From a virus (lineage: Duplodnaviria; Caudoviricetes): a stretch of DNA of 56,429 nt. Numbering within the stretch: position 1 is the first letter of the stretch; every line of letters starts with the position of its first letter. This document shows, piece after piece, positions 3,584-28,570 of the stretch. Made by a program: the position numbers and the translations under genes. A model generated the notes under the pieces. It saw nothing but the letters and a program-made list of their open reading frames with translations, searched no databases and was not told the origin of the DNA. The stretch lies in the IMG/VR virus record IMGVR_UViG_3300032288_000938, positions 1 through 56,429 of that record, one strand, 5' to 3'.

Positions 3584-3775
3584 TTAGAGGTCATCGTCCT
3601 TCAAAAGTCTCTCTTCAAGATCAAGGATATGGCGCTCAGCCTGCGCCAAACCCTCAACTTTGCCCACCATGTGCCTATACATTGCGTAATCGCTGGCACC
3701 GCCAGTGGCCATAGAATCCGCCAAATCATTAAGATCTTCGCGGATTTTCTTGCGAATTAGTTCAAATTCCTTCAC
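3584..3775 (-). CDS. Small conserved protein downstream of portal
   Basis: DY..YRHMVG...GL motif; overlaps portal stop. Confidence 0.7.
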   Translation of the reverse strand: MKEFELIRKKIREDLNDLADSMATGGASDYAMYRHMVGKVEGLAQAERHILDLEERLLKDDDL

Positions 3776-6180
3776 GAACCACCCATCAACTTGGTGCTGG
3801 CCTTAACGACCTCTGCTAACTGTTTCGCGTCAAGTTCCTTGTCCCGCACATCAACGTCTGCCATGATTTTTGCCCCGGCAATACGCTCTGCGGAATCCAG
3901 CTTTTCCTTGTCCAGCCGGAGCTTTTCAGCCGCGATCTGGGCGTCAACCATGTCCTTAGCAGCCTTGCGCTGCGACTCCTGAGCCTTGATCTGAAGCTCA
4001 GCCTGCTGCATCTGGATAAGCGGATCCTGAGCCTGAGCCTCGGCCTTCTGGGCCGCAGCCTTAGCCATGCCGTCCTGAAGAACCTTCTGGGCGGCAAGGG
4101 CTTCAACCTGAGCGAGAGTTTGCTCAACCTCTGGTGGGACCTCTTCTCCGGGTGCCGGTAGGGTGACGCCCATCTGCTGCTCAATCTTCTGGCGATACGC
4201 AAAGCCAATATGCTCAGCAATGTGGGATTGCATGGCACCCTGAATGGCACTGGCGAACTGGCTCTGCCCAACCATCTCCTGTATCCGTGGATCTTGGGCA
4301 AACGCCATATGGACTGCCAGATGTGCCTCGTGGTCTTGGTTTGCGAAGGCCATAACCTGATCCTGCTTAAGGATAGCCATGTTTTCAGACACGGGATCCA
4401 TAGGCTTGATTTCGTCCGGAAGCTTCACAATCTCATCGGCTCCCTTGATGCCCATGACTTCAAGGGCCTGCCGGTGGAGAAGCGGGGCGTTGTAAATCTG
4501 CGGGGCCTGCTGCGACATCTGGAGTGCAGCTTGGTACTGCATGAGCCGCTGAGACATGGTGGATGCGTTCGGATCAGAAACCGGGATCACATCAACGCGC
4601 TCGTCAAAATCCTCAAGACGGTTAAACTCGCCGCCGACATCATACTCGTATTCAGGACCCATGTAGTCCTTGATGATCTGAGCGATCAGCTTGAACTCTT
4701 GGTTCATGGCTGCGTGGACGCGAGCCTGCACAGCGGACATGACCTTGAGGTTGCGCTCCAGAAGGGCCAACGTCGTGCCAACGGGCGCGTTCGGGTTCAT
4801 ATCGCCAATGCTTACGTCGGCGATAGAGCCAATGCGGCGACCCTCTTCAGTCAGGGTGCCAAGGAGTTGGTAAAGAACCTGAGATGGCTCCTTATACGGT
4901 AGGAAGGTGATGCTGTCCTTAATGGCACCAGAAGCCACATCAACGTCACGGAACTCGCCCGGCATCAGAGGAGATGAATCACCCTTAATGCGCAGACCGC
5001 GAGCCTTCAGACCGGCGGGGAGGTTTGAGAGCGTACCAGCGTCGATAAGCTGCCGAAGAATAGATGTTGAGGATTTTGCAACCCCGCCAATCAAGTGAAT
5101 AAGCCCGGAGCCGTAGAAGCCAAGGCCCGGCAGATACGGGTAGTGGACAAAGTGCATACGCTTCTGGCGCAGTTCATCATCCTCGCGCCAGTTGCGGCGG
5201 ATGGCCAGAACTTTGCCAGACTGCTTTTCAATTGTGATTACATACGGAAGAGCGATGCCATCTTCGGACTCATAGCCCGGCAGATCGTAGTCAACGTGCA
5301 TCTCAAGGATCAGGTGACGGTCGTCCATATCCCAAGAGGGGTTGTCGCCATCAATCCGGTCGTACTTGTCCTGAATGCTGCTGCGCTCCGGGGTCGGCTC
5401 CGGCAAATCAATATCACGGTAAAAGCCAGACGCCATGAGCTTCTTGACTTCATTCGGATACTTACGCATCACATGAGTGTAGCGCGGGGCTGACTCAAGA
5501 TCAGAAGCGCCGTAAGGGACAATGAAGTCTTCTGCCGGTACGAAATCGGCGCGGGGAACCCGACGAACGGAGTCGTAATAAACCTTCTTGAATGCGGACC
5601 CAGCCAGAGGCTGACGGAACAGAAGCTGCTCCATTTCGGCGCGATAGCCGGGGATCTTCTGCATCACGATGTAGTTCATTTCCTCCCCAACGCGCTCAGC
5701 TTGCTTTGCGCGCTCTGGGGTCAGCTTCCCGATTACCTGTGTACGGACTGGACCTGATGCAGGCACCACTTCCATAATCGTTTGGGATTGATAACGGACG
5801 ACAGCTTCAGCGAGGATTGGGTGATAAACGCCAGAAGCGCCGGGCCACGGAATAGTCCGCTCCTCATACTTCATGCCGAGAAGGTCGAGACCTTCAATGT
5901 AGGATTTTTCCCAATCGCGACGAGATTCCTTATCTGAATTGTAGTCCCCGATCAGGTCGGACGCGATGCTGTCAAGCTCCCCTTCGTCCATAAACTCAGC
6001 AAGGTTAGCATTGAAGTCTTCTTCGTCGCCCTCAATTTCGTCGACCATTTCACCAGAAAAATCTACGACAACCCCGCCGTCCTCGGTCTCGGTTGTTTCA
6101 ATATCGGGGGGAAGCACAACTTCCATTGGCTCTTCCATCGGCAACCCGATTGGGTTTGTCAGCACTGGTTCAATAGCCAT
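3772..6180 (-). CDS. Portal protein (P22-like)
   Basis: 802 aa; PWPGASGVYHP, GSAFKKVY, YLPGLGFYG, LPYKEPS, PVGTT; follows terminase. Confidence 0.9.
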   Translation of the reverse strand: MAIEPVLTNPIGLPMEEPMEVVLPPDIETTETEDGGVVVDFSGEMVDEIEGDEEDFNANLAEFMDEGELDSIASDLIGDYNSDKESRRDWEKSYIEGLDLLGMKYEERTIPWPGASGVYHPILAEAVVRYQSQTIMEVVPASGPVRTQVIGKLTPERAKQAERVGEEMNYIVMQKIPGYRAEMEQLLFRQPLAGSAFKKVYYDSVRRVPRADFVPAEDFIVPYGASDLESAPRYTHVMRKYPNEVKKLMASGFYRDIDLPEPTPERSSIQDKYDRIDGDNPSWDMDDRHLILEMHVDYDLPGYESEDGIALPYVITIEKQSGKVLAIRRNWREDDELRQKRMHFVHYPYLPGLGFYGSGLIHLIGGVAKSSTSILRQLIDAGTLSNLPAGLKARGLRIKGDSSPLMPGEFRDVDVASGAIKDSITFLPYKEPSQVLYQLLGTLTEEGRRIGSIADVSIGDMNPNAPVGTTLALLERNLKVMSAVQARVHAAMNQEFKLIAQIIKDYMGPEYEYDVGGEFNRLEDFDERVDVIPVSDPNASTMSQRLMQYQAALQMSQQAPQIYNAPLLHRQALEVMGIKGADEIVKLPDEIKPMDPVSENMAILKQDQVMAFANQDHEAHLAVHMAFAQDPRIQEMVGQSQFASAIQGAMQSHIAEHIGFAYRQKIEQQMGVTLPAPGEEVPPEVEQTLAQVEALAAQKVLQDGMAKAAAQKAEAQAQDPLIQMQQAELQIKAQESQRKAAKDMVDAQIAAEKLRLDKEKLDSAERIAGAKIMADVDVRDKELDAKQLAEVVKASTKLMGGS

Positions 6181-6188
6181 TTGATACC

Positions 6189-7688
6189 TCAGTAATACGG
6201 TTCATTAGTGGGGAGGCGAGGTGGCACAGGATCGTCCTCCTCATCTGTGTGGATTCTTACAAAGCCGCCTTGGCGGAAGCGCAGGATAGCCTGCGAAACC
6301 GAGTCAACGTAGTCATCATGCGATCCTGCCGGGAACGCGGCGCACTCTTCGATTACTTCTTCGGCCCATCTGGTGTCTGGCACCCATACACAGCCCGATG
6401 CAAAAAGATCCGTGATTGCGTTTACACGAGCAATCTTGTCTTGTCCCCGAGAAGGGGTGAAATCCGTAACCGGAATACCAGCCGCCCGCAGTTCGAAAAT
6501 TAGCGGGGAACCCGAGGCCTTCGCTTCGATTATAACCATATCCGGTGTCCATTGGCGATAATGGTCCATGGCCACCCTCTTCAGTTCCGGAAACTCCATC
6601 TTGTCCTTGAACGCATCCAGAAGGATAATGTTCGGTATCGGGGTCCCCGACTCGTCGTTGTAAAATACGCCCCATGTTGTGCAAGCTGAATAGTCGCTCC
6701 GTTCGGTTTTCTTAAAGGCCGTATCCCACGATACAAGAATTGATTCACAAGGCGGTGGGTGATCTCTGTCCCAGATACGCCACCACTCACGCTTCAGGAG
6801 AGCGCCTTCTTCCGAAGTCGGGTCCTGCTGATACTGAGCAGACCATTTACTAATCGGCAGTTCAGCCTTAAGCTTTTCAAGCTCAGCAAGCGACCAGAAC
6901 TCAGGCCAGAGCGGCTGCCCGGACGGCATGATGGCGGGGAACTCAATAACCTCCCACTCACCAGAGCCATCGCGCTTAATGGACGAATCAATGATCTGCC
7001 CTGTCAGGTCTCGCTTTGACCACCGGGTCATAACGATGATAATGGCCCCGCCCGGCTGGAGACGCTGGCGAGGACCAGAGGTGTACCACTCAAAAACCTT
7101 ATCATACACGCTTGGGTCGAACTGGCCAAGCATGGCTTCCTGTTCCGAGTGCGGGTCGTCGATGATGAGTAGATCAGCACCCTTACCCGTAACAGCGCCA
7201 CCAACACCGATGGCGAAGTATTCGCCCCGCTTGTTGGTAGACCAGCGGCCTGCGGCCTTGCTGTCTGATTGCAGACCTATACCAGAAAACACCTTCTGGT
7301 AGTCTTCAGATCCAACAAGGTTACGAACTTTACGGCCAAATCCAGTGGCCAACTCTGCCGTGTGTGCAGTCTGAATAACCTTCTTTTCGGGGAACTTTCC
7401 CAGAAACCAAGCGGGGAGAAGGTATGAGGCAAACTCTGATTTGGTATGGCGGGGTGCCATATTGATAATCAGGCGTTTGCACTTGCCGTCCGCAACCCGC
7501 TTAAATGCGTCCGCCATAATCTGATGATGCCTGCCGCCAATAAAACCGGGCCACATCATCTTTACGAACTTCATAAAATCATCGCGAGCAGCCTCGCGGT
7601 CTCTCGCCTCGTCAAGGCGGCGCAGTAATTCCAGAATCTCCGGCTTCTCAGAGTCGGGGATTTTTGAGATAATCTCTGCGTAATCCAT
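6189..7688 (-). CDS. terL: Terminase large subunit
   Basis: Walker A variant MAPRHTKS, Walker B LLIIDDP, MTRW, nuclease SWDTA and HDDYVD. Confidence 0.95.
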   Translation of the reverse strand: MDYAEIISKIPDSEKPEILELLRRLDEARDREAARDDFMKFVKMMWPGFIGGRHHQIMADAFKRVADGKCKRLIINMAPRHTKSEFASYLLPAWFLGKFPEKKVIQTAHTAELATGFGRKVRNLVGSEDYQKVFSGIGLQSDSKAAGRWSTNKRGEYFAIGVGGAVTGKGADLLIIDDPHSEQEAMLGQFDPSVYDKVFEWYTSGPRQRLQPGGAIIIVMTRWSKRDLTGQIIDSSIKRDGSGEWEVIEFPAIMPSGQPLWPEFWSLAELEKLKAELPISKWSAQYQQDPTSEEGALLKREWWRIWDRDHPPPCESILVSWDTAFKKTERSDYSACTTWGVFYNDESGTPIPNIILLDAFKDKMEFPELKRVAMDHYRQWTPDMVIIEAKASGSPLIFELRAAGIPVTDFTPSRGQDKIARVNAITDLFASGCVWVPDTRWAEEVIEECAAFPAGSHDDYVDSVSQAILRFRQGGFVRIHTDEEDDPVPPRLPTNEPYY

Positions 7689-7694
7689 GCGAAT

Positions 7695-7703
7695 ATGATA
7701 CCA
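7695..7703 (-). promoter_or_regulatory. Extended -10 promoter candidate giving a leaderless terL mRNA
   Basis: TGGTATCAT ends 6 nt before terL ATG; no SD; upstream terminator at 7718-7754 isolates it. Confidence 0.5.
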
Positions 7704-7716
7704 CGCGGGGTTTAGA

Positions 7717-7843
7717 TAAAGAAAGACCCCCCACGGGGCGAACCATGGGAGGTCAACTAAGCAGGGACTTTCGCGTCTTCAGTGCTGGCTATGACCCAGA
7801 ATGGCATCCCTAACCCGGAGAGGACTTACTCTCTAGCCAACGG
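7717..7843 (-). ncRNA. Candidate ~125-nt structured sRNA with own promoter and terminator
   Basis: TTGACA(7871-76)-17-TAAATT promoter; stem GTTGGCTA/TAGCCAGC; GAGAG/CTCTC; AGGGAT/GTCCCT pseudoknot; terminator GACCTCCCATGG/CCGTGGGGGGTC-TTTCTTT. Confidence 0.6.
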
Positions 7844-7877
7844 GGCCAATTTAGCATCTATTGTTCAGTCTGTCAAG

Positions 7878-7952
7878 TGGTGCCGGGTGAGAGGATTGAA
7901 CTCCCGACCTTCGGTTTACAAAACCGCTGCTCTACCGCTGAGCTAACCCGGC
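7878..7952 (-). tRNA. tRNA-Thr(TGT)
   Basis: GCCGGGTTAGCTCAGCGGTAGAGC...TT-TGT-AA loop...GGGAGTTCAATCCTCTCACCCGGCACCA; cloverleaf with CCA. Confidence 0.95.
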
Positions 7953-8237
7953 GAGGGTTGGGTGCCGATTTAATTTTAAGGGCCGTCCTTAAAAGGCCCA
8001 CCGTTCGCAACCCCGCCACGATAGCGGGCATCTACTAGGCCGAGAAATCCCCTATCGGCTGGGGTAGGTCGTTACCCCTCTTTCTCTTTAACCCAAGAAG
8101 GGACGGGCTATGACCACCGCTACGCAGAAGCCATTGTCTTAAGCCATACCCCCGTCCAGTATGGCAGCATCTCCCTCATCTCTAGGCGGACAAACTTGCC
8201 GCAAGCCAGCCCGCAAGGGGATACAGAACTGGCCGGT
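7953..8237 (-). ncRNA. Candidate structured ncRNA between the two tRNAs
   Basis: At least seven hairpins and a 7-bp loop pseudoknot (GGACGGG/CCCGTCC); no credible ORF. Confidence 0.5.
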
Positions 8238-8314
<77 letters not shown>

Positions 8315-8485
8315 TGTAGGTCCGGGTGGTGAGCTTTTCACCTCGCCTGCTGGCCCGGCCCAGCGCCTCCCCTCCTGCGAACTGCTTGGCCTCTTCAGGC
8401 GGTCCCAAGCAGCCAGAGAGCAACGAACCGTTCCCCACGCTCAACCCCTGAAGGGCTTCTAGGCGGTATCGCTGGCACACTCTCG

Positions 8486-8665
8486 TCACTCCTTTGAGCG
8501 ATCCCGGTAAATCATGTGCATCATGCCATAATCCTCTCCCAAGTAAAGAGGAGCGGGGCTTCCAATTGGCTTCCAGCCATCCTTCTTCATGGCATCAACC
8601 CCGTACATTAGATCTGGGAAATTACTCCCCCATACGATCCTTGTGTCCAAGACCTTGAATGTCAT
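8486..8665 (-). CDS. 59-aa protein, DUF1737-like (not in ORF track)
   Basis: Hand translation MTFKVLDTRIVWGSNFPDLMYGVDAMKKDGWKPIGSPAP...; ATGA overlap with upstream gene. Confidence 0.65.
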   Translation of the reverse strand: MTFKVLDTRIVWGSNFPDLMYGVDAMKKDGWKPIGSPAPLYLGEDYGMMHMIYRDRSKE

Positions 8666-9513: not shown

Positions 9514-9720
9514 TCACTCCATGATATATGGGTCTGAGGAAAACACACAAGCATACGAATACAACGGTGGTTCCCCAGTGTTGCTGATTGGACGGAAACC
9601 AGCTTCCTCGGCAGCCTTCACGCAGTCCTCACGTGTCGCATAGATCCCGACCTTTTCACTCCCGGCTGCACCAAAGGAATGCAAAAAGACGAGCATGACG
9701 TAGATGCCAGTCACCATCAC
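9514..9720 (-). CDS. Small secreted/membrane hypothetical protein
   Basis: Hydrophobic N-terminus, two Cys; GAGGAG RBS inside phoH end. Confidence 0.55.
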   Translation of the reverse strand: MMVTGIYVMLVFLHSFGAAGSEKVGIYATREDCVKAAEEAGFRPISNTGEPPLYSYACVFSSDPYIME

Positions 9721-10403
9721 TTCTTCTCCTCTAGGATAAACGCCTCAATCCACATCTTACATATCTCAGAGCGCACCACATCGTCAAGGGTGAACTCAAT
9801 GACGGGTACGGGGATGTTGTATTTCTTCACCATGTGGATGGCCCTACGCAACCCCGAAGTCTCGTGAATGTCGGATTGGGACACATCGCCATTCATAACC
9901 ACAAGACAGTCCTCACCGATGCGGGTGAGAAACATTTTTATCTCATGCGGGGTCGTGTTTTGAGCCTCGTCCAGTATCACGAACGAGTTATCAAATGACC
10001 TACCGCGCATGGTCTCAAAGGGGACGATCTCAATATTGCGGTTCTTGAGCGCAAGCTCCACAACTGCCGGGGTCAAATGCTTGTTCAAAACATCAATGAC
10101 CGGGGCCATCCACGGAGCCATCTTTTCATCAAGCGTCCCCGGAAAATATCCGATAGATTTCCCTGCTCCAATATTGGGCCGGGTCAGGATGATTCTTTCG
10201 ATCCTCTTCTCGTTGAAAAGACTTGCCGCGTATGTGGCGGCTATATAGGTCTTTCCAGTACCGGCAGGCCCTAGAACAATTACCTGTTGGCATTCTTTCA
10301 GAGCCTTTATGTATTCCCCCTGAGTCGGGGTTTTGGGGACGAGAGATATTGACTCTCGCCCCTCATCAAACTTGTTGCGCTTCCGCGTTCCGCTCTTAAC
10401 CAA
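9717..10403 (-). CDS. phoH: PhoH-like ATPase
   Basis: GPAGTGKT, RP, GYFPG, MRGRSF, ILDEAQN, GD..QSD. Confidence 0.95.
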   Translation of the reverse strand: MVKSGTRKRNKFDEGRESISLVPKTPTQGEYIKALKECQQVIVLGPAGTGKTYIAATYAASLFNEKRIERIILTRPNIGAGKSIGYFPGTLDEKMAPWMAPVIDVLNKHLTPAVVELALKNRNIEIVPFETMRGRSFDNSFVILDEAQNTTPHEIKMFLTRIGEDCLVVMNGDVSQSDIHETSGLRRAIHMVKKYNIPVPVIEFTLDDVVRSEICKMWIEAFILEEKK

Positions 10404-27322: not shown

Positions 27323-27761
27323 GATCCGCGATATTGCGATTAACTTCGAGGCCGTGAAGGTCTCAATGAACCAAGACAAGAATGGCCTGATGCTCAAGCT
27401 CGCCATTCATCCCTCTGACGCGCCGCAAGATCTTGTTGTTGCACCCGTCGGCACCCGCTATATGATTGCTGCCGTAATGCTGAACGACCAAGACGAACCA
27501 ACGATGGGCGTCAAGAAACGTGAAGCGGACACGGTTATATCAATTGCAGGGGCCTTATGTCGTAACAATCGCTTTCAGGATTGGCTGGAGGCAACGGGCC
27601 TTGCGCTTGAGAGTTCCGAGAAGGCTGCCGTTGATGCTGTTCGTGATTTCTGTGGCATCAAATCGCGCAGCGAGTTCTCGACAAACGAAAGCGCGCGCAC
27701 TAAGTTCATGGCGCTGCGTGAACAGTTTGAAGCTGATTATAAAAAGGGGAAGGTAAGATGA
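27315..27761 (+). CDS. Conserved phage protein
   Basis: FEAVK, L.IHP.D.P, GTRY, AG.LC....FQ.W, CGI.SRSE. Confidence 0.75.
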   Translation: MTEIRDIAINFEAVKVSMNQDKNGLMLKLAIHPSDAPQDLVVAPVGTRYMIAAVMLNDQDEPTMGVKKREADTVISIAGALCRNNRFQDWLEATGLALESSEKAAVDAVRDFCGIKSRSEFSTNESARTKFMALREQFEADYKKGKVR

Positions 27762-28570
27762 AAGTAGTTGAAGTCGTCCGCGAATACGCCCGGTCCCGTC
27801 GGTTCACAAACCTTTCCGATAGCACAAAGCGCCAGTATATCTCATCAATGAATGAGATCGAGAAGGCGGTTGGCCAAATGGATATTCAGAGCGTCAAGAG
27901 GCGGGATCTTGTCCGGGCATTTGAGGCATTGGGCGATACGCCAGCCATGGCTAATCGCTTCTGCCGGGTGTGCAGCGTTGTATTCAACTATGCAGTGGAG
28001 ATGGAGTATTGCGGTGGGAACCCCGCCCATCGGCTGACCCCGTTTAAGCTCGGCACGTGGAAGCAATGGACGAAGGAAGAAGTGGACAAGGTGATCGCCC
28101 TTAACCACCCTATCGTAAGTGTGGCTGTTGCTCTGGCCTATTACACGGCGCAGAGAGAGGCAGACATTCTTAAGATGAAATGGTCAGACATCAAGGACGG
28201 GGTTTTGTATGTTAAGCAAAACAAAACCGGGGCTGTCCTTGAGATTATGGTTGCGCCGCAGTTGCAGGCCATTCTGGATAAGCTGCCTAAGACAGGGGAA
28301 CACATCATCCGTTCCAAGGCAGGGGGCCTCGTAACCGGGCCATCGTTCCGGAATATGCTCAAGCGCGTCACGCGGTCTGTCGGGGTTGACGCCCCGTTCC
28401 ACGGATTGCGTAAGACTGTTGGATCGCGCTTGGCAGAGAAGGGCAAAAGCGCAAGTCAAATCGCCGCCATCCTCGGGCATCGTACCCTAAAAATGGCGGC
28501 GCTTTATACGCAACAGGCTGACAGCAAGAAGCTTATCGCCTCTGCTGTCACCTCCCTAGCTGCTGATTGA
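27758..28570 (+). CDS. int: Tyrosine recombinase/integrase
   Basis: R (AQREAD), K (QNKTG), HGLR, LGH and Y (ALYT) catalytic set. Confidence 0.9.
   Translation: MKVVEVVREYARSRRFTNLSDSTKRQYISSMNEIEKAVGQMDIQSVKRRDLVRAFEALGDTPAMANRFCRVCSVVFNYAVEMEYCGGNPAHRLTPFKLGTWKQWTKEEVDKVIALNHPIVSVAVALAYYTAQREADILKMKWSDIKDGVLYVKQNKTGAVLEIMVAPQLQAILDKLPKTGEHIIRSKAGGLVTGPSFRNMLKRVTRSVGVDAPFHGLRKTVGSRLAEKGKSASQIAAILGHRTLKMAALYTQQADSKKLIASAVTSLAAD

Follow-up and report, generated by a model that had tools for sequence, protein, structure and literature searches.

What fills the long gap between two neighbouring transfer RNA (tRNA) genes of a phage? The window analysed here is a 56,429-bp stretch of DNA, a complete viral record with direct terminal repeats, in which the calls for tRNA-Pro and tRNA-Thr leave a spacer of exactly 285 nucleotides (nt; 7953–8237). 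A sequence-only reading had placed a 285-nt structured RNA in this interval; its boundaries agreed to the nucleotide with ARAGORN and Rfam, and every complementary word that it quoted is present in the sequence. Comparison with relatives of the spacer indicates that it encodes a genuine conserved folded RNA on the minus strand (hereafter, the element). The single 285-nt unit did not stand, as the element is modular, with a core of ~140 nt followed by a lineage-specific 3′ domain of ~140 nt.

The pseudoknotted core and its covariation

The common core (window 8237–8100, ~125–145 nt) comprises two tandem H-type pseudoknots that lie 3–5 nt apart, and a hairpin is inserted into each. The element starts 3 nt past the encoded CCA of tRNA-Pro. 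The features of the core and its tRNA neighbours are:

8238–8314, minus strand: tRNA-Pro(tgg), the upstream neighbour (ARAGORN; Rfam tRNA model, 67.9 bits)
8166–8237, minus strand: module A, an H-type pseudoknot of S1, S2 and an inserted hairpin
8234–8229 with 8209–8204, minus strand: S1, GGCCAG/CUGGCU
8224–8215 with 8177–8167, minus strand: S2, AUCCCCU/AGGG-A-GAU
8202–8186, minus strand: inserted hairpin GCGG/CCGC, in the third loop of module A
8100–8165, minus strand: module B, an H-type pseudoknot of H1, a loop-to-tail pairing and H2
8165–8143, minus strand: hairpin H1, GCCATAC/GTATGGC
8157–8151 (loop, GGACGGG) with 8107–8101 (CCCGUCC), minus strand: pseudoknot B
8142–8135, minus strand: A-rich junction, AAGA.A.AA
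8134–8110, minus strand: hairpin H2 (variable)
8110–8108, minus strand: conserved UAG
7953–7957, minus strand: linker to tRNA-Thr, read from the sequence
7878–7952, minus strand: tRNA-Thr(tgt), the downstream neighbour (ARAGORN and Rfam)

Relatives came from word and pattern scans of IMG/VR, plus one metagenome scan that gave a single contig; the loci carry L numbers. As sampled, the family comprises ~16 contigs (phage or metagenome) besides the window, ~17 in total, and falls into three sequence clades, with a GC content of 0.54–0.59 in the window's clade and 0.40–0.42 in both others. The exact-word scan with 18-mers gave only L005, in which the element and tRNA-Thr are ~95% identical to the window as one block, the flanks are unrelated, a tRNA-Arg(tct) lies upstream and the element carries a 104-nt insertion; 17-mer matches in L087 and L089 were judged to be chance. 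L185 and L190 (= L192) have the full-length element at the array end, directly ahead of a promoter and the terminase gene. L184 and L187 share the first 145 nt and then have a different 3′ part, and L186 (= L170) has the second module alone. Covariance-model searches of viral loci, a check proposed by the sequence-only reading, found further homologues. A model of the first 145 nt (R1) gave weak matches in two tRNA-rich loci, L158 and L108. The model extended with these two (R2), run with filters off over 92 of the 93 loci with the window's tRNA-Thr T-arm word, added L099, L103, L150, L154, L157 and L159 at 41–46 bits. The window scored 148–158 bits against R1 and R2.

The core alignment held 15 sequences (14 distinct rows) from the three clades, which have almost no stem sequence in common. 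Paired cells made up 97.8% of the core, compared with 36.9–45.5% in six slid controls, and 26 of the 34 core pairs had changed on both sides (4–8 when slid). None of 500 shuffles reached the core's covariation score. Earlier MAFFT alignments of the window's clade only gave counts in the same direction. The unpaired CUG, GGGG, AAGA.A.AA and UAG are invariant across clades, and the stems vary freely.

In module A, the distance from the 5′ to the 3′ strand of S1 is 31 nt in all 14 sequences, and S1 was counted in this ungapped register (MAFFT was unable to align it across clades). The stem reads UCAUGCAG/CUGCAUGA in clade 2 and GCACAAAA/UUUUGUGC in clade 3. The GGCCAG/CTGGCT pairing first noticed in the window was paired in 111 of 112 cells over the three clades (38–44 of 112 when slid), with at least two pair types at each of 8 pairs. 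S2 becomes UAUUGUUU/AAACAAUA in clade 2 and UCCUAUC/GAUAGGA in clade 3, and both sides changed in 8 of its 10 pairs. S1 and S2, in this crossing order, were the best crossing pair in seven of seven representative sequences covering all three clades; shuffles matched the crossing in 0–3 of 300 cases for the AT-rich clades and in 11–88 of 300 for the GC-rich clade. The gap from the 5′ strand of S2 to the 3′ strand of S1 is 3–5 nt. The GCGG/CCGC hairpin is invariant in the six sequences having it and absent from the other two clades.

In module B, the H1 loop has the general form CUG-NNN-GGGG and pairs with CCC-NNN-CC located 3′ of H2, and the variable triplets are GAC/GUC, AGU/ACU and UCU/AGA, one per clade. 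The loop match of GGACGGG with CCCGTCC (8101–8107), already pointed out from the window alone, was paired in 100% of cells; of its 7 pairs, 3 consecutive ones covary with three pair types and 4 are invariant. The two other quoted words of this module also held up: 6 of the 7 H1 pairs covary (GCCATAC/GTATGGC), and ATGGCT/GGTCAT proved to be the base of a longer hairpin, H2, with 9 of 10 pairs covarying. The gap from the 5′ pseudoknot strand to the 3′ strand of H1 is 1–2 nt, and the junction ahead of the 3′ pseudoknot strand is (U)AG, without a C. RNAalifold suggested two helices, one joining the 5′ end to the H1 loop and one of GGCU/AGCC, and both were ruled out by their conflict with the covarying H1; at GGCU/AGCC, L184 and L186 have, by eye, A-C and C-A.

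The RNA strand is fixed as the tRNA strand by the frequent minus-strand G-U pairs, which would be A-C mismatches on the other one. The element is neither coding nor a tRNA: its indels are not multiples of three, and its substitutions are compensatory. ARAGORN with introns or relaxed thresholds called no tRNA in the window's spacer, and its transfer-messenger RNA (tmRNA) mode called none in the spacer or in the L005 copy; the loosest threshold gave a single low-scoring tRNA-Tyr(ata) call within the L005 copy. The Rfam models for tRNA, tmRNA, Tymo_tRNA-like and YrlA did not match over the element. The Rfam scan that had been proposed as a check returned no family over the element (cmscan at gathering score for the whole window and at E ≤ 10 for 7600–8600), and the same search of six homologue loci at E ≤ 1 gave only tRNA or tRNA-overlapping matches. 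A tmRNA-style short tag-like open reading frame (ORF) through H1 was ruled out by a 1-nt insertion in L190 that shifts the frame. A decayed tRNA-Asn was also considered and dropped; the similarly spaced Pro-Asn-Thr array of rhizobial N4-like phages aligns at its tRNAs only.

Several results weigh against a conserved functional RNA and against reading the covariation too strongly. The minus-strand spacer has a minimum free energy of −111.2 kcal/mol, compared with −106.3 ± 5.2 for dinucleotide-shuffled versions (z = −0.94), and of the 200 shuffles 31 fold as well or better; the plus strand gave z = −1.08. The within-clade sequences are near-identical and the contigs number only ~17, so the covariation represents few independent events. 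The counts for nested helices were favoured because these helices belonged to the model that built the alignment, a model outside which pseudoknot B and S1 stood. Among cultured phages (INPHARED, 50,697 records), blastn with the window region matched 327 records in tRNA parts only, and blastn with the L158 element matched none. Pattern scans of 185,579 prokaryote species genomes gave no convincing match (none in the first scan, three in the second that were forced by the pattern). The best genome-scan match, L196, scored 13.5 bits, has no nearby tRNA, lies antisense to its flanking genes and was judged unconvincing; the first-look filter of the R2 genome search was too insensitive for this family and missed clade 3 in the clade-3 records themselves. 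The sequence-only reading had named two observations that together would count against an RNA, folding no better than dinucleotide-shuffled controls and a lack of conserved homologues. The first was indeed what we found, and the RNA survives because covarying homologues exist although the single-sequence fold is like that of shuffles.

Domain C and the tRNA-array setting

The 3′ part of the element in the window is a separate domain, found in common only among the window, L005, L185 and L190 (= L192):

7958–8096, minus strand: domain C, a lineage-specific 3′ extension of ~140 nt with multiple helices
8096–8091 + 8059–8054 with 7969–7964 + 7963–7958, minus strand: closing helix of domain C (RNAalifold)
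8078–8066, minus strand: mini-hairpin
8028–8012, minus strand: hairpin CCCGC/GCGGG
7999–7980, minus strand: hairpin GGGCC/GGCCC

In domain C, 96.6% of cells were paired (34–45% when slid) and 12 of 30 pairs had changed on both sides, figures that are biased upwards and weaker as evidence because the structure was derived from the same four sequences. The closing helix has 13 pairs, in which UUGGGU (8096–8091) and GCCGAU (8059–8054) pair with AUCGGC-ACCCAA (7969–7958), and 3 of them covary. Among the words originally quoted for this part, CCCGC/GCGGG was retained, with C-G changed to U-A in L005. Three of the eight quoted stems did not hold: L185 and L190 disrupt GGGGTA/TACCCC, the local GCCGA/TCGGC pairing gave way to the long-range covarying GCCGAY/RTCGGC helix, and TTTTAAGG/CCTTAAAA was replaced by the covarying GGGCC/GGCCC hairpin. 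On the plus strand, the reverse complement of the GGGGTA/TACCCC hairpin plus a T-rich run (8061–8078) has a terminator-like score that is probably fortuitous, since no plus-strand gene ends nearby.

The 3′ end of domain C in L185 and L190 is GGCACCA, at first sight like a tRNA acceptor. A tRNA-like domain (GCCGAY...RUCGGC-ACCA) was weakened by the covarying pairing of ACC(C/A)(A/G)A with UUGGGU/UCUGGU; because the ACCA-like end sits in a covarying helix, domain C is not called tRNA-like here. In the alignment of domain C carriers, 8094–8090 has an alternative partner at 8070–8066 that, by eye, also covaries. The 5′ strand of the domain is a possible conformational switch, pairing either as 8094–8090/8070–8066 or as 8096–8091/7963–7958.

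Other pieces of RNA-like sequence were seen in these arrays. At the place of domain C, reverse-complemented L187 has a degenerate tRNA-like stretch (~800–880) with the canonical T-arm GGGUUCAAGUCCC and an acceptor-like end ...CCCCUACCA, without an ARAGORN call. The 104-nt insertion in the L005 element (1572–1675) contains GNRA-capped hairpins, and ~60 nt of it recur in another phage, in the spacer between tRNA-Gly and tRNA-Thr (L129 214–272; nhmmer E = 1.5e-4), which suggests, from this sequence match, a further exchangeable RNA module of tRNA arrays. A conserved module of ~80 nt (AAUAAUCCCG.UCGGG...CCGAGCGGGAUUAC) precedes the element in L184 (~850–922) and in reverse-complemented L190 (~915–994). 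In L190 a stretch with a T-arm and CCA, without an ARAGORN tRNA call, lies ahead of that module.

All copies of the element were found within tRNA arrays of viral contigs, on the tRNA strand, and the two complete records searched have one copy each. The upstream and downstream tRNAs are Pro and Thr (window, L186), Arg and Thr (L005, L187), Arg and Asn (L158, L108) or Asn and Ile (L099, L103), and the upstream tRNA of L187, L158 and L108 is tRNA-Arg(tct), as in L005. In its minimal forms the element lies 4–7 nt from the tRNA on either side, and S1 begins 3–7 nt past the upstream tRNA in five loci. In L099, for instance, tRNA-Asn occupies 571–647, the element 650–777, and tRNA-Ile starts from 777; in L158 a 31-nt hairpin and the element are placed between tRNA-Arg (74–148) and tRNA-Asn (307–382). 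Most other tRNA junctions in these arrays are 1–8 nt. The phage nearest to the window by large terminase (L006, 93% amino acid identity) has a tightly packed Pro-Gly-Thr-Asn array with a tRNA-Gly in the slot, and no element. The core is carried by both small (56 kb) and large (~165–200 kb) phages whose packaging genes are unrelated. No homologue of the window's terminase was found in the complete 196,948-bp record that holds L158, and none of the 4 records searched matched it. The varying neighbours, the tRNA in the slot of L006 and the unrelated terminases lead us to regard the element as a cassette moving among the tRNA arrays of unrelated phages.

The window's genes lie mainly on the minus strand. 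Besides the products listed here, the PHROGs annotation includes a small-terminase-like protein, a primase/helicase and a 2,194-amino-acid protein.

93–1007: major head protein (PHROGs annotation)
3772–6180: portal (PHROGs annotation)
6189–7688: large terminase (PHROGs annotation)
9717–10403: PhoH-like protein (PHROGs annotation)
27758–28570, plus strand: integrase, tyrosine-integrase-like (PHROG 1, E = 1e-41)

The phage, which has this integrase along with direct terminal repeats and a tRNA array, is possibly temperate; the scanned species-representative prokaryote genomes gave no prophage copy of the element.

Two regions flank the array on the minus strand. Upstream, 171 non-coding nt (8315–8485) extend from the stop of a 59-amino-acid ORF to tRNA-Pro; this stretch has a fold z-score of +0.16, is missing in relatives (L186 has 6 nt there) and has no homologues among the fetched loci. 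Directly past the array comes a sigma-70-like promoter (7876–7848, TTGACA-17-TAAATT), then a structured, highly conserved element of ~55 nt (7841–7787), whose closing stem GGCUA/UAGCC becomes GGUCA/UGACC in L190, and finally an intrinsic-terminator-like hairpin with a T run (7754–7716). At gathering score Rfam gave no match in this region (7876–7716), which was compared with L006, L185, L186 and L190; placed just ahead of the terminase gene, it resembles either a small RNA gene of its own or an antitermination cassette with a late promoter. Between its terminator and the terminase ATG (7688), the block GTGGTATCATATT (7703–7686) is kept in five phages. It reads as an extended −10 (TGG TATCAT), ends 6 nt ahead of the ATG and has no Shine-Dalgarno sequence; judging from these letters, the terminase messenger RNA might be leaderless.

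Proposed release from the array and competing explanations

How would such an element leave its array, and what would it do? Our preferred reading, with a probability of roughly 0.55, is that the element is a trans-acting stable small RNA, transcribed with the tRNAs and excised by tRNA-processing enzymes, its excision and stability being what we infer. RNase P makes the 5′ ends of tRNAs, and RNase E/Z together with exonucleases makes their 3′ ends; given these established roles, processing of the flanking tRNAs should necessarily free the element. No promoter-like site was found between the window's tRNA-Pro and tRNA-Thr, the nearest one downstream being that at 7876–7848, past tRNA-Thr. With the element flush with its tRNAs, release by tRNA processing is the simplest reading. 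In this scheme the element, without a promoter of its own, would share a transcript with tRNA-Pro and tRNA-Thr that starts from a promoter further upstream. Its 5′ side would be freed when an endonuclease processes the 3′ end of the upstream tRNA, and its 3′ side when RNase P cuts the downstream tRNA at its 5′ end, so that the cut at tRNA-Thr would set the 3′ end in the window. Two compact pseudoknots would make for a long-lived, nuclease-resistant small RNA, and once released it would act in trans in the infected cell; its probable targets (translation, tRNA metabolism or a host nuclease) are all guesses.

Four RNA-library runs, all of assembled contigs, were compared with the locus. The tRNAs are present in all four, and three (X2, X22 and X23) cover tRNAs only. 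The fourth, the freshwater RNA library X1, has two contigs over 7961–8093 with 18 and 13 differences (~86% identity) and an L185-like order, and it also covers 7760–7857, part of the downstream leader, in a relative. As a caution against seeing the released RNA here, the X1 contigs could be DNA carry-over, and assembled contigs carry no RNA ends.

A bolder proposal, which we consider doubtful, is that the ~130-nt core is a new functional RNA class with its own activity, either a new self-cleaving ribozyme that matures phage tRNA arrays or a pseudoknot mimic that captures a host enzyme of tRNA processing or cleavage. If true, the mimic would capture RNase P/E, an anticodon nuclease or a ToxN-like toxin and so shield phage translation, and domain C would be an add-on module.

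It is unlikely that the element works in cis alone, as a structural spacer within the tRNA precursor such as an exonuclease roadblock or folding insulator, with no life after processing. Compact pseudoknots do stall exonucleases, and the element always abuts tRNAs, without its own promoter or terminator. However, the same arrays manage with 1–8 nt at most junctions and need no such spacer there, and the neighbours (Pro, Arg or Asn upstream; Thr, Asn or Ile downstream) vary, so no particular tRNA is served. The strong conservation of loops and junctions across clades of 40–59% GC points instead to a specific binding surface.

It is quite unlikely as well that the element matures the adjacent tRNAs in cis, as theta ribozymes do at phage tRNA 3′ ends, be it as a new self-cleaving ribozyme or as a processing element of another kind. 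The element's position is similar to that of the theta ribozymes, minimal HDV-like (hepatitis delta virus-like) RNAs described as small and pseudoknotted, with double pseudoknots immediately 3′ of phage tRNAs and a cleavage site within 5 nt of the tRNA 3′ ends (PMC10879173), and the start of S1 only 3–7 nt past the upstream tRNA in five loci fits this. Invariant unpaired nucleotides within freely varying stems are also the typical pattern of a catalytic or ligand-binding core. In the HDV fold, however, a single double pseudoknot is nested (P1-P2-P3-P1.1-P4, with a P3/L3 hairpin) and the catalytic C stands at the first position of J4/2, whereas the element has two independent tandem H-type knots; in the place of the P3/L3 hairpin, between the P2 5′ and P1 3′ strands, it has only the 3–5 nt of module A and the 1–2 nt of module B, and a candidate J4/2 cytosine was not found. 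No Rfam ribozyme matched in the window (E ≤ 10) or in the six homologue loci (E ≤ 1). The 31-nt hairpin of L158 separates the upstream tRNA from the element, and in L190 another module stands ahead of it. Finally, the flanking tRNAs encode CCA and resemble ordinary substrates of RNase P/E.

A special case of the trans-acting reading, improbable in our view, is a decoy or inhibitor RNA that counters a defence or nuclease of the host aimed at tRNAs or other RNA. Toxins of the ToxN type are inhibited by pseudoknotted RNAs (PMC5449768), tRNA arrays have been named as putative anti-defence units (PMC12803027), and gain and loss of the element resemble those of accessory genes. It lacks a ToxI-like repeat structure and similarity to Rfam antitoxin RNAs, though, and the link to defence is entirely circumstantial.

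Decayed tRNA genes or neutral junk folded by chance would agree with the single-sequence z of −0.94, the tRNA-Gly in the slot of L006 and the degenerate T-arm and CCA stretch of L187, but this is highly improbable given compensatory changes in 26 of 34 core pairs over three clades, two conserved pseudoknots, the failure of both ARAGORN and the Rfam tRNA model to match the window's spacer, and a core conserved between phages with unrelated terminases.

Relation to known RNAs

With a trans-acting small RNA as the preferred reading, the closest precedents are in phage T4, whose RNAC (species 1) and RNAD (species 2) have roles stated as unknown in the accounts consulted (PMC3014915, PMC9697503). 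They are non-coding RNAs of 119–139 nt in the tRNA region, on the tRNA strand and directly past tRNA-Arg, and this position makes them a precedent for a stable small RNA; the element, too, follows tRNA-Arg(tct) in L005, L187, L158 and L108. By eye, a T-arm-like hairpin closes the 3′ end of RNAC and ...CACCA that of RNAD, so that both look tRNA-like there, whereas the present core is two pseudoknots. No homology to rnaC or rnaD was detected by R1 with filters off over 69000–75000 of NC_000866, where the best score was 3.6 bits.

GOLLD and ROOL are described as structured RNAs of phages and prophages with multiple pseudoknots and unknown function (PMC12286853); the earlier statement that they often lie near tRNA islands agrees with that account. 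The element is likewise phage-encoded in tRNA arrays, but GOLLD and ROOL are much larger, many GOLLD members exceeding 800 nt (PMC12286853). Neither was matched by the Rfam searches of the window, 7600–8600 and the six homologue loci, and there is no hint of nanocage assembly for the present element.

Classical H-type pseudoknots with an A-rich third loop occur in telomerase RNA, SAM-II, preQ1-II and viral frameshift knots. The element has the same order of stem 1, very short loops 1 and 2, stem 2 and an A-rich loop 3, and by analogy its loop 3 (AAGA.A.AA) could lie in the groove of stem 1 in a triplex-like manner. Those knots are cis-regulatory or part of larger ribonucleoproteins, while the element, placed between tRNA genes, has no ORF to regulate and carries an extra hairpin in loop 3. 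It would represent a new fold family, a small and sharply defined double pseudoknot of tRNA arrays. No title or abstract describing the motif was found in the literature, although subscription journals lay mostly outside the coverage and an earlier description is possible.

On present comparisons, the element joins the enigmatic structured RNAs of phage tRNA islands (T4 RNAC/RNAD, GOLLD and ROOL) while being homologous to none of them. RNAC and RNAD have been known for 50 years, GOLLD and ROOL since 2009–2017, and to our knowledge none of them has a known function. At ~130 nt, the core is of a size that suits structure probing, crystallography or cryo-electron microscopy, as well as ribozyme and pull-down assays. 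For phage biology, the finding means that tRNA arrays swap non-tRNA cassettes slot by slot, and because of this exchange the spacers longer than ~100 nt in viral tRNA arrays are worth mining.

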